A stretch of 64,000 nucleotides of DNA, taken from contig OZ241883.1 in assembly GCA_965203445.1 (NCBI GenBank), forward strand, positions 2,080,001 to 2,144,000. Direction: 5' to 3'. The position numbers and the translations under genes were made by a program. Positions within the stretch are counted from its first letter, which is position 1. Each line of letters starts with the position of its first letter. This DNA comes from Candidatus Oxydemutator sp. (GTDB lineage Bacteria; Pseudomonadota; Gammaproteobacteria; Poriferisulfidales; Oxydemutatoraceae). The notes below the pieces were generated by a model. The model saw nothing but the letters and a program-made list of their open reading frames with translations, was not told where the DNA came from and did no database searches. Below, piece after piece: positions 52,937-56,566 of the stretch.

Positions 52937-52959
<23 letters not shown>
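51628..52959 (-). CDS. tilS: tRNA(Ile)-lysidine synthetase
   Basis: [29 protein letters not shown]...RN; start uncertain. Confidence 0.92.
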
Positions 52960-53896
<937 letters not shown>

Positions 53897-53923
53897 CAAA
53901 GATAGGGAATTATATACCTAAAT

Positions 53924-55204
53924 CTACAGAGTAACCTGTAGATTAGAAGTATCCATTTGACGTTTCACAGGCAGTGCCGTGTCGGATGTATCTTTCGATA
54001 AATCCTTCATGGTCTTACCATTGCCTCCGCGTCCAGTAGCCCCATTCCCGGAGGCCTTCAAACTCAGTACAGATTCTCCCAGCTTCTTGATATTCAAGGC
54101 AGCGTTCCAATCCGCATTATCCCGATGACCGCAATCCGTACATACAAATACCGATTGCGATACTCTGTTCCTCTTGTCTATGCAACCGCACACATTGCAA
54201 GCTTGGCTAGTGTGCTTCGCACATACATAATTTACTTGGGTCTTGTATCCTATACATTGCTCTAACTTATGCCATCTTGTATTCAGTATCCCTCTATTCA
54301 ATCCTGACTTGGCCTTTACACTCTTGCCGGGGGCGGCAGCCGTGCCTTTGGCACTCCTGGTCATACCCTTGGTGTTTAAATCTTCCATATATATTACAGA
54401 ATAATTCCTTGCGATTTCTGCACTTACATGATGGCACCAATTAGTATGCCTCTGTTTTATCTTCCTGCATACCCTCGCATGGGAATGCCGGGCAAGCTCA
54501 TAACGCTTAGAGGGTCTCTTCCTGTATTTCCTACTTCCGCAATCCCTTCTTGCCATTGTCTTTTGATAGTGGCGCTTTTGCGCCTCTAATCGAGTAGTAT
54601 CGGGAACCCGATACACAATACCGTCGGAACATGTTATCTGACCTACATTCCTGTCTATACCTACCGCATTGTATTCACGTTCCACTTCCTTTTGTTCCAC
54701 TGCATAAACCACATATGCATACCAGTTCCCGCATTCCCTTTTGACCGTGCCCGATACGGGCTTTGCATCCGGATACGGATTATGACCTAGCACTAGAAAC
54801 TCACCCGTCTTCTCTATATACAGATGACGACCCCTTATCCGAAACAAACCCGATACCAGGGGAAAACTCTCAGGATGTACATACCTCGCATGAAACCTAG
54901 GCAGCCCGCCCTCTTTCTTGTAAAACTTCTTGTACGCCGTCTCTATAGGCTTCAAAGATAATTTTACTATATTAGCTGAGTATTCCTGCAACCAGGGTTC
55001 GCAGTGGCGACGTAGCAAAGTGAATTGCTTGCCAAGTGTGTAGTACCACGGCTTGCACCTTCCATACGCCTTATATTCATCCCTCAACTTACCCACAAAA
55101 TGGTTCCACACAAACCGACAAGCACCTGCCAATCCCGCTAACTTGCGGGCTTTGGCTTGCGTGCCGGGATGCACTCTATAACGGATTGTTCGATGTACCT
55201 TCAT
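53924..55204 (-). CDS. tnpB: TnpB RNA-guided endonuclease
   Basis: N-terminal GACRFVWN, RuvC D (GIDRNV), E (MEDLN), D (ADWNAALNI), Zn finger CNVC...CTDC, TSQ. Confidence 0.93.
   Translation of the reverse strand: MKVHRTIRYRVHPGTQAKARKLAGLAGACRFVWNHFVGKLRDEYKAYGRCKPWYYTLGKQFTLLRRHCEPWLQEYSANIVKLSLKPIETAYKKFYKKEGGLPRFHARYVHPESFPLVSGLFRIRGRHLYIEKTGEFLVLGHNPYPDAKPVSGTVKRECGNWYAYVVYAVEQKEVEREYNAVGIDRNVGQITCSDGIVYRVPDTTRLEAQKRHYQKTMARRDCGSRKYRKRPSKRYELARHSHARVCRKIKQRHTNWCHHVSAEIARNYSVIYMEDLNTKGMTRSAKGTAAAPGKSVKAKSGLNRGILNTRWHKLEQCIGYKTQVNYVCAKHTSQACNVCGCIDKRNRVSQSVFVCTDCGHRDNADWNAALNIKKLGESVLSLKASGNGATGRGGNGKTMKDLSKDTSDTALPVKRQMDTSNLQVTL
53937..54060 (-). ncRNA. Putative omega-RNA overlapping the tnpB 3' end
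   Basis: GCCTCCG/CGGAGGC stem, GAAA-tetraloop hairpin, GACG/CGTC pseudoknot potential ending CGTCAA; boundaries inferred. Confidence 0.55.
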
Positions 55205-55408
55205 CACCAACCATCATATCATATTCTTGTTCAAAATCAAGTACTTCATCACTATTCTGTAGATTTAGGTATATAATTCCCCAAAGATACTCGTCGGACG
55301 GAAACGCCAGCCGAATGATTTTAGCACGAGGCGCCGTGTCTTCCCGGACGAGTGACGCCGAACGCGCCGGGCGCGGTAAGCGTCAATGCGTATATAATCG
55401 CCTTTTCC

Positions 55409-56566
55409 ATGCCGCCACGCCTGCCGACGCCCGACCATGCCCTCGACCACGCGATGACCGGCCGGCCACCCGCGTCCGCGGCCCGTCGTCTCGACGAACG
55501 CTACCGCCGTCATCTGGCGAAACACCGCCATCAATCCGACCCGGAGCAGCTCAAAGTTGTGAACCATCTGCAGCGACTGCTGGACGAGCTTGCCGCCACC
55601 GACGGCGGCGTCTGGCGACGATGGCGCGCGCGCGTCGCCGGACGCCGCGCGACCCCGCCCAGGGGGCTCTATCTGTGGGGCGGCGTCGGCGGCGGCAAGA
55701 CTTTCCTGATGGATCTGTTTTTCGACGCATTGCCCGAGGCGCGCAAGCAGCGCACCCACTTCTACCGCTTCATGCGCCAGGTACACGCGCTGCTGCGGGG
55801 CGAACACGGACGCGATCCGCTGGAGGCCGTGGCGGCGCGCCTCGCGCGGCGCGCGCGGGTGTTGTGCATAGACGAGTTCTTCGTGTCCGACATCACCGAC
55901 GCGATGATCCTGCACCATCTGCTGCGCGCGTTGTTTGCCAGGGGCATGGTGCTGGTGACGACGTCGAACCTCGCGCCACGCGAACTCTACAGGGACGGGC
56001 TACAGCGCGAGCGCTTTGTGCCCGCCATCGAGGCGCTCGAAAGACACACCCGCGTCGTGCGCCTCGAGGCACGCGCCGACTACCGCCTGCGCACGCTTAA
56101 GGCCGGCCAGGTTTATCACCACCCGTGCGGCGACGCCGCCGAAAGCGCGCTTGGGCGCGCCTACGCGGCGATCGCCGCCGACGGCCACGACGGCCGCGGT
56201 CGTATCGAGATCAACGGCCGCGACCTGGCCGTCGTCCGCCGCTCGCACGGCGTCGTCTGGTTTGCGTTCGGCGCCGTCTGCGAAGGCCCGCGCGCACCCG
56301 CCGACTACATCGCAATCGCACACCTGTACCACAGCGTGCTGATTTCCGGCGTGCCGTCGTTCGTCCGGCGCGACGACGCGGCGCGGCGCTTCATCCAGCT
56401 GGTGGACGAACTGTATGACCGCAACGTCAAACTGATCGTATCGGCGGCGGCGGCGCCCGACGAGCTGTATCGCGCCGGGCGTCTCGCCCGCGAGTTCGAG
56501 CGCACCGCGAGCCGCCTGATCGAAATGCAGAGCCGGCGCTATCTGGCGCGGGCGCACCGCGGCTGA
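55409..56566 (+). CDS. zapE: Cell division ATPase ZapE (AFG1 family)
   Basis: GLYLWGGVGGGKT, DEFFVSDITDAM, TSN, RRFIQLVDELYD, RTASRLIEM. Confidence 0.92.
   Translation: MPPRLPTPDHALDHAMTGRPPASAARRLDERYRRHLAKHRHQSDPEQLKVVNHLQRLLDELAATDGGVWRRWRARVAGRRATPPRGLYLWGGVGGGKTFLMDLFFDALPEARKQRTHFYRFMRQVHALLRGEHGRDPLEAVAARLARRARVLCIDEFFVSDITDAMILHHLLRALFARGMVLVTTSNLAPRELYRDGLQRERFVPAIEALERHTRVVRLEARADYRLRTLKAGQVYHHPCGDAAESALGRAYAAIAADGHDGRGRIEINGRDLAVVRRSHGVVWFAFGAVCEGPRAPADYIAIAHLYHSVLISGVPSFVRRDDAARRFIQLVDELYDRNVKLIVSAAAAPDELYRAGRLAREFERTASRLIEMQSRRYLARAHRG

Follow-up and report, generated by a model that had tools for sequence, protein, structure and literature searches.

Introduction

Prevailing accounts link prokaryotic TnpB to scarless HUH or serine-recombinase transposons. 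Where a 2026 review (PMC13565253) turns to DDE associations in prokaryotes, it lists ISL2, IS630 and IS1031 and describes such links as rare and hard to explain; its account of IS200/IS605 elements gives them no terminal inverted repeats (TIRs), no target duplication and insertion 3′ of a fixed short motif. The main text of Altae-Tran et al. (2023, PNAS, PMC10691335) describes six DDE-transposase-associated TnpB branches (DDE-1 to DDE-6), all with inverted terminal repeats, in which the 3′ end of tnpB lies at most 250 bp from the transposon end. It also describes solo TnpBs between nearly identical ends, suggesting mobilisation in trans. Here we describe a 1377-bp element in a 64,000-nucleotide stretch of the Candidatus Oxydemutator sp. 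genome (contig OZ241883.1, positions 2,080,001 to 2,144,000; the whole stretch is hereafter the window), in which tnpB is the sole cargo between IS1595-type TIRs and is flanked by an 8-bp target duplication.

The IS1595 family and its ISNwi1 group, with members that carry passenger genes, are said to have been treated by Siguier, Gagnevin and Chandler in 2009. On an assumed end consensus of ggnnatTAT for the ISNwi1 subgroup, the ends of the window element, which read GGGAATTAT, would fit that subgroup. Another insertion sequence (IS) of the IS1595 family, ISApl4, has TIRs and A/T-rich 8-bp duplications, as reported in PMC12561309. In eukaryotic Fanzor elements, the TIR and the target duplication form part of the guide-RNA scaffold, as shown by Yoon et al. 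(2023, NAR, PMC10711439).

A tnpB cassette between perfect inverted repeats

The element occupies positions 53905-55281 and stands out from its surroundings by composition (GC fraction 0.44-0.49 versus 0.67-0.72 in the flanks). Its TIRs are perfect over 26 bp and extendable to 29 nt at 97%; they lie at 53905-53930, the tnpB-downstream or right end, and at 55256-55281, the tnpB-upstream end, which is the left end in tnpB orientation. Allowing up to three mismatches, the 26-mer occurs in the window at just these two sites, with none expected from 100 shuffles. Flush with both TIR ends lies an exact 8-bp target duplication, CAAAGATA, at 53897-53904 and 55282-55289, the former copy being the first 8 nt beyond the right end on the tnpB strand. 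A third copy of the 8-mer inside the element, at 54953, shows that it is not rare by itself; the duplication is not a chance match because it is placed flush with the ends and because the same geometry recurs at other loci. Contigs of one run (X1) span both junctions with zero differences, a run that may be the source sample and so is not independent, and no contig of four runs joined the flanks across the element as an empty allele would.

The only long open reading frame (ORF) with a family match in the element is tnpB, on the minus strand at 53924..55204 (426 codons, ATG at 55204). Its stop codon, TAG at 53926-53924, falls inside the right TIR, 19 nt from the element end. The protein matches Pfam HTH_OrfB_IS605, OrfB_IS605 and Cas12f1-like_TNB, all above their cut-offs, and NCBIfam guided_TnpB with 185 bits (cut-off 100), and it falls under the cut-offs of the IS200/IS605-specific model IS200_TnpB (140 versus 425) and of the IS607-specific model (84 versus 350). 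Across 17 aligned family members, D184, E274, D362/D365, C336, C339 and C358 are invariant and C355 is nearly so. The catalytic aspartate within RDNAD, D362 or D365, is presumably the one that corresponds to the usual D-x-N-A-A motif. The nearest solved structures are ISDra2-type TnpBs (PDB 8h1j and 8exa, E about 1e-19). Nine nucleotides upstream of the tnpB ATG, a promoter-like TTGATT-16-TATGAT with a TG before the -10 lies at 55213..55240 (minus strand), a candidate by position only.

A preliminary description of this DNA, made from the letters and their translations, had reported the perfect 26-bp repeats, the exact duplication, tnpB as the only gene with no transposase, and an intact set of RuvC acidic residues with a zinc finger. 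Inverted-repeat and shuffle tests agree with the first of these, the duplication is flush at both ends, the ORF list and a Pfam search revealed no transposase gene in the element, and the active-site and zinc-finger residues are conserved in the 17 aligned members. It had also seen no hairpin at the left end: the tnpB-upstream end does lack a strong one, and the tnpB-downstream end has one, at 53914-53952, which that description had not mentioned.

Copies, a partner transposase and an empty site

The genome that contains the window is complete, a single contig of 2.38 Mb. A tblastn search of it found 13 near-full-length tnpB copies of 54-100% protein identity, together with fragments, and all 13 are bounded by TIRs that start GGGAAyTATATAC. 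The outer ~13 nt of the TIR are common to the 13 copies, while the inner part varies by subfamily and in many copies is unlike between the left and the right end. The 8-bp duplications are exact in eight copies, with no two alike, and match at 7/8 in two; the remaining three copies are degraded. The window copy is the sole member of its subfamily in this genome, the next copy being 80-81% identical in protein.

The same genome holds one full IS1595 transposase gene, within a 2616-bp element at genome positions 1978350-1980965. The 26-bp TIRs of this element are identical to each other, agree with the window TIR at 24 of 26 positions and are flanked by an exact duplication, ATCAGAAA. The 314-aa product matches DDE_Tnp_IS1595 (1e-43), carries the IS1595 zinc ribbon and scores 206 bits with NCBIfam transpos_IS1595 (cut-off 75); the second product of the element is a 436-aa N6/N4 methylase-HNH passenger. 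Searching the complete genome for a Y1 TnpA (PF01797) gave no match, the control search having matched 6 of 14 control genomes. Since the window element has no IS1595 DDE transposase, it can belong to IS1595 only as a transposase-less derivative.

In all three congeners the accA-zapE site is empty, with the two genes adjacent and 181-267 bp apart, compared with ~1600 bp in the window genome. The DNA identity of accA between the window genome and the congeners is 81-83%. The insertion is therefore later than the split of these species-level lineages.

The preliminary description had inferred a TnpB cargo within IS1595-type DDE ends, mobilised in trans, and the copies, the partner element and the empty sites support it. 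Further tnpB copies with the same type of TIR and different 8-mers, which it had named as a check, are present in this genome (8 exact and 2 at 7/8 among the 13) and in many other genomes. The matching-ended IS1595 transposase that it had anticipated sits in the same genome, with a TIR that differs at 2 of 26 positions and its own exact duplication. The empty accA-zapE site that it had expected is found in the three congeners; the target 8-mer is not conserved there.

Several reduced copies stand beside the intact ones in the genome. A 786-bp copy at 247602-248387 has an internal deletion and retains both TIRs and the RNA region, and at about 2222900-2223400 the N-terminal 108 codons are joined to the RNA region and the right end. 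These two deletion copies could serve as stand-alone guide-RNA genes.

A predicted guide RNA that shares a hairpin with the TIR

Nucleotide-level conservation extends over the last ~150 nt among elements whose proteins are just 48-60% identical. Conserved blocks, a consensus fold, covariation and hairpin analyses together delimit an omega-RNA-like scaffold at 53905..54055 on the minus strand, overlapping the 3′ end of tnpB. The consensus fold of 51 sequences has 17 pairs in three helices. In the window element these pair, on the minus strand, 54055-54051 with 54043-54039 (helix 1), 54033-54029 with 53963-53959 (helix 2) and 54025-54017 with 53976-53970 (helix 3). Paired cells make up 96.3% of 867 compared with 85.9% in shuffles, and 78 cells are changed on both sides compared with 15.1 in shuffles, neither value being reached in 500 shuffles, although the sequences are related and such counts overstate independence. 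When partners were slid by 1-3 columns, 33-46% of cells were paired.

MAFFT does not align the variable terminal hairpin, which was therefore analysed sequence by sequence. In each element a conserved CGTCAA block is followed by a hairpin that uses the right TIR, at positions of about 10-26 counted from the end, as its 3′ arm; in the window element it spans 53952-53914 (minus strand), with the inner part of the TIR as its 3′ arm. The single-stranded AUAAUUCCC that follows, at 53913-53905 (minus strand), ends exactly at the element boundary. Among 68 unique elements the right end outfolds the left end in 57 and its own antisense in 55, and G-U pairs account for 143 of the 781 pairs in the hairpins. 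Native hairpin arms have a mean energy of -11.3 kcal/mol, compared with -5.0 kcal/mol when the 5′ arm is combined with the TIR arm of another subfamily, the native combination being better in 62 of 66 cases. Covariation therefore links the 5′ arm to the inner TIR, on the sense strand of the RNA.

A guide segment is predicted at 53885..53904 (minus strand), made up of the target duplication and the first accA codons. We infer this position because the scaffold stops at the element end and from the way in which guides of IS200/IS605 TnpBs arise, as given in the main text of PMC10691335. An Rfam search of window positions 53600-55600 in E-value mode returned no matches, and among 8 runs none was listed as an RNA run containing the region.

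At many loci (for example L034, L041, L043, L015 and L020) the tnpB frame is closed by a TAA that lies within the conserved TIR (..TATAATTCCC), at a distance of 5 nt from the end of the element. At such loci (for example L034 and L041) the last 40-60 codons of tnpB overlap the RNA scaffold.

A purine beside the target duplication

We oriented the insertions by tnpB, deduplicated them by flank and kept those with a duplication of at least 7/8, which left 48 unique sites. Inner positions of the 8-mer are A/T-rich and roughly palindromic, and its first base is never G. On the tnpB-upstream side, the base that immediately precedes the duplication (5′) is A at 18 sites, G at 29, C at none and T at one; no constraint is evident at the mirrored positions on the opposite side. 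Metagenome contigs contributed 13 more unique sites, looked at after the hypothesis had been set, and all of these have a purine there (13/13), which brings the total to 60 of 61 family insertions. Among 24 transposase-bearing elements with the same ends, a purine is found at 15 on one side and at 10 on the mirrored side (Fisher versus 60/61, 2.6e-5 and 6.7e-9, respectively). In sister elements with ISL3-type ends, described below, the corresponding base is G at 9 of 9 sites.

The purine looks like a target-adjacent motif (TAM): an empty allele would place it directly before the sequence matched by the predicted guide, where the occupied locus has the CCC of the TIR. At the window locus the candidate TAM position comprises the 4 nt 5′ of the duplication on the tnpB strand, CGAG at 55290..55293 (minus strand), assigned from the family flank bias. 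The same bias lends indirect support to the prediction that TnpB cleaves DNA in an RNA-guided, TAM-dependent manner.

Spread of the family and a second end type

Family tnpB genes are present in 18 of 41 related genomes (a set that includes the window genome) and 27 of the 41 have the IS1595 transposase. Neither gene turned up in the 10 family f3 genomes. The first 11 loci taken from relatives all have the same end type. A species-representative collection contains 260 stretches that encode a relative, of which the best 79 loci come from metagenome-assembled genome (MAG) records titled Gammaproteobacteria (Candidatus Porisulfidus, Oxydemutatoraceae, Arenicellales and Poriferihabitans), Rhodothermales, Caldilineaceae and Poribacteria. 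With ends called by end-motif anchoring, 60 of the best 79 loci have both GGGAATTAT-type ends, a few of these pairs having low TIR identity and being probably false. The duplications among the 60 are exact in 22, 7/8 in 11, 6/8 in 3 and lower in 24. By these sequence matches the family is widespread in sponge-associated MAGs, and TnpB relatives down to about 36% protein identity keep IS1595-type ends. At 23 loci on viral contigs no IS1595-type TIRs were found, and the one close relative among them, L210 (41% identity), has no clear TIRs.

Transposase-bearing elements with matching ends and exact duplications were present at 23 of the 32 transposase loci examined, either as simple elements of 1.25-1.4 kb or as elements of 2.4-2.9 kb with a passenger, a methylase in several. 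None of the 32 transposase loci contains tnpB, so that transposase and tnpB were never found in one element. Twelve of 15 transposase-IS TIR types are matched by the end of a TnpB element at no fewer than 13 of 15 inner positions, against a median of 8 over all pairs; cassettes and autonomous elements thus have many end subtypes in common. In one related genome (L014/L027), a tnpB cassette lies ~1.5 kb from a transposase-bearing IS1595 element, each with its own TIR pair, an adjacency and not a single element.

TnpBs 35-39% identical to the window TnpB, from three related genomes, split into groups A, B and C. Group A has a related end, GGGACTTATATAC..., and 8-bp duplications. In groups B and C the TIRs are of another kind, GGsGCTTCAsG..GTGTGGAA, with 8-bp duplications that reach at least 7/8 in 9 of 11 elements. 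In one of the three genomes, a genome-wide pattern search turned up three elements of 1348 bp that share the end type of groups B and C, and the one that was fetched encodes an ISL3-family transposase (Pfam DDE_Tnp_ISL3, 8e-64). No transposase with ISL3-type ends was present in the five IS1595 transposase loci inspected. Judged by their ends and by these transposase matches, related TnpBs ride on the ends of two unrelated DDE families, IS1595 and ISL3.

Among the loci of related genomes, L177-L187 and L208 hold tnpB-only elements with ISL3-type TIRs and 8-bp duplications. A further ISL3-ended tnpB element, enlarged to 2994 bp, contains an IS110-family (DEDD) transposase gene (L209:1581-2624), probably a nested insertion.

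Proposed mechanism and alternative explanations

With IS1595-lineage TIRs and an 8-bp duplication at its borders, a near-identically ended transposase element in the same genome and empty sites in congeners, the window element is probably a non-autonomous derivative of an IS1595-family (ISNwi1-like) transposon. We propose that its sole cargo is a TnpB/omega-RNA module, that it is mobilised in trans and that the guide RNA has a role in homing. The IS1595 transposase would bind the common outer TIR (~13 bp) and, acting in trans, insert the cassette at AT-rich targets of 8 bp. Transcription of tnpB would start from a promoter immediately inside the left TIR, and the 3′ part of the transcript would fold into the three-helix scaffold and the terminal hairpin with the right TIR as its 3′ arm. 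If the scaffold ends with AUAAUUCCC at the boundary, the guide would consist of the target duplication and the adjoining flank. TnpB loaded with this RNA could then cut the empty allele, which offers a purine-ended TAM, a single 8-mer and the right flank, and would spare the occupied locus, where the target is preceded by the CCC of the TIR. Repair by recombination with the occupied copy would bring the insertion back or spread it, a scheme proposed for IS200/IS605 TnpB and discussed in the main text of PMC10691335. The homing or retention service that TnpB gives to IS200/IS605 would here be rendered to a DDE transposon.

Several points weigh against this proposal. Because the window copy is alone in its subfamily in this genome, nothing points to a recent burst of copying here, and just 4 of the 13 copies match the lone resident transposase in inner TIR type. 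The omega RNA, its ends and its guide are predictions of fold modelling, and activity is predicted from sequence for TnpB and for the IS1595 transposase alike. The promoter-like site is one of 2 found in the region, where 2.9 are expected by chance. The purine bias is drawn from related, non-independent sequences and is set against a control of just 24 sites, and it concerns a single strongly constrained position, unlike a typical TAM of 4-5 nt. Cut-and-paste excision, moreover, already leaves a break, a point made in the review's discussion of what a DDE transposon gains from TnpB (PMC13565253).

That last point also favours an explanation in which the IS1595 transposase moves the cassette in trans and TnpB with its RNA is of no use to the transposon, riding along as a selfish or decaying passenger; the flank bias would then stem from an asymmetry in how the transposition complex prefers its targets. 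An asymmetric complex is conceivable given that the inner TIRs differ between left and right in many copies, and only one flank position is strongly constrained. However, catalytic residues, zinc finger and a covarying scaffold are kept in relatives down to 48% identity, same-ended transposase elements have no such bias (15/24 and 10/24), and the bias recurs with the unrelated ISL3-type ends (9/9), so that we regard a mere passenger as unlikely. We find it still harder to accept that the right-end hairpin is a DNA-level feature, either an extra transposase-binding site or a terminator, and that the 3′ nucleotides are conserved for coding only. Its 5′ arm does repeat the inner TIR, as sub-terminal transposase sites can, and the region lies within the ORF in most copies. 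Against this, two observations point to RNA, namely that the sense strand outfolds its antisense in 55 of 68 elements and that 143 of the 781 pairs are G-U; the left end has no hairpin, the right end being the better folder in 57 of 68; and the three upstream helices have 78 cells with changes on both sides, compared with 15 in shuffles. There remains the reading as an ordinary IS200/IS605 (IS1341-group) tnpB-only element with coincidental inverted ends and 8-mers, which has next to no credibility in our estimate. The protein is nearest to ISDra2-type structures (8h1j and 8exa, E about 1e-19), and a sub-terminal hairpin lies at the right end. That family has neither TIRs nor target duplications in the review's description (PMC13565253), whereas dozens of copies here have both, with 8-mers that differ; in addition, no Y1 TnpA was found in the genome and the IS200_TnpB score is 140 against a cut-off of 425. 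The recurrent TIRs and duplications and the lack of a PF01797 match in the genome refute it.

A wider possibility, which we put forward tentatively and hold with less confidence than the proposal for the window element, concerns the whole TnpB clade, common in sponge-associated bacteria. The clade may be an obligate hitch-hiker of IS1595 and ISL3, in which the last stem-loop of the guide RNA is fused with the TIR and the duplication with its flank is read as the guide next to a minimal purine-ended TAM. It may thereby drive or retain the insertion alleles of transposons that take targets regardless of a TAM. If true, the obligate hitch-hiker would be a bacterial counterpart of the partnership between Fanzor and TIR transposons and a natural test case for the benefit that a cut-and-paste element draws from an RNA-guided nuclease.

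Relation to described systems

The general kind of arrangement, TnpB within the ends of a DDE transposon, is known since 2023. The novelty implied by the preliminary description was accordingly too high, since DDE-associated TnpBs and solo copies probably mobilised in trans are described in the main text of PMC10691335. The window family resembles those branches in having tnpB between inverted terminal repeats, its 3′ end near the transposon end and solo copies. It differs in that none of 32 transposase loci combines transposase and tnpB in one element, in the omega-like hairpin built from the TIR and in the flank bias oriented by tnpB. In the main text of PMC10691335, IS1595, ISL3, ISL2 and IS1031 have no occurrences and IS630 alone is named; its supplements may name IS1595. 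A pairing of TnpB with IS1595 or ISL3 was not found in the literature searched by full text, in which candidates were mostly judged by title or abstract. Likewise, we found in print neither the obligate trans arrangement, nor a hairpin common to TIR and guide RNA, nor an orientation-bound purine by the duplication.

Relative to the IS1595 family, the partner transposase has the DDE domain and zinc ribbon, the TIRs and A/T-rich 8-bp duplications are of the same kind, and larger members carry a methylase passenger; the window element differs in having no transposase and in carrying an RNA-guided nuclease and guide-RNA scaffold as its passenger. With the IS1341 group of IS200/IS605 (ISDra2 type, 8h1j and 8exa) it shares the nuclease family, the single gene, a 3′-overlapping scaffold that runs to the boundary and a sub-terminal right-end hairpin. 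It departs from that group in its TIRs and 8-bp duplications, in that no HUH TnpA was found in the genome and in having no fixed tetra- or pentanucleotide target. Fanzor1 and Fanzor2*, as described in PMC10711439, likewise have a lone TnpB-type nuclease in a non-autonomous TIR transposon with duplications, and a TIR within the guide-RNA scaffold. Here, by contrast, the host is bacterial, TnpB is of ordinary length, and the 8-bp duplication varies and is predicted to belong to the guide, not to the scaffold.

The family offers a compact and abundant system with an identified transposase partner, many independent insertions, a guide RNA predicted to overlap the transposase-binding sequence and a testable flank signature. 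It makes testable the question of whether TnpB brings a homing or retention benefit to a cut-and-paste transposon, and of how a single run of nucleotides accommodates both guide-RNA and TIR constraints. Genome-editing groups, too, would have an interest in a TnpB whose TAM is very short.

Neighbouring gene and minor observations

Downstream of tnpB and co-directional with it lies accA (52937..53896, minus strand), whose ATG at 53896-53894 directly follows the 8-bp duplication. The element thus sits 8 bp upstream of the accA start codon and severs this essential gene from its former upstream region; transcription of accA probably starts in the element or runs through it. The first accA codons would be matched by the predicted guide.

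Methylase genes recur around the transposases. At genome positions 512990-514254, another methylase gene comes after an IS1595 transposase fragment of 42% identity, and a methylase query gave more than 25 matches across the 2.4-Mb genome. In other genomes, methylase passengers stand next to related transposases at L026, L030, L205 and L023. Smaller remnants of the window family's end type also occur in the genome, comprising a right-end relic at about 1480560-1480660, which still has its hairpin, and a 163-bp miniature element with related TIRs at 113341-113503.

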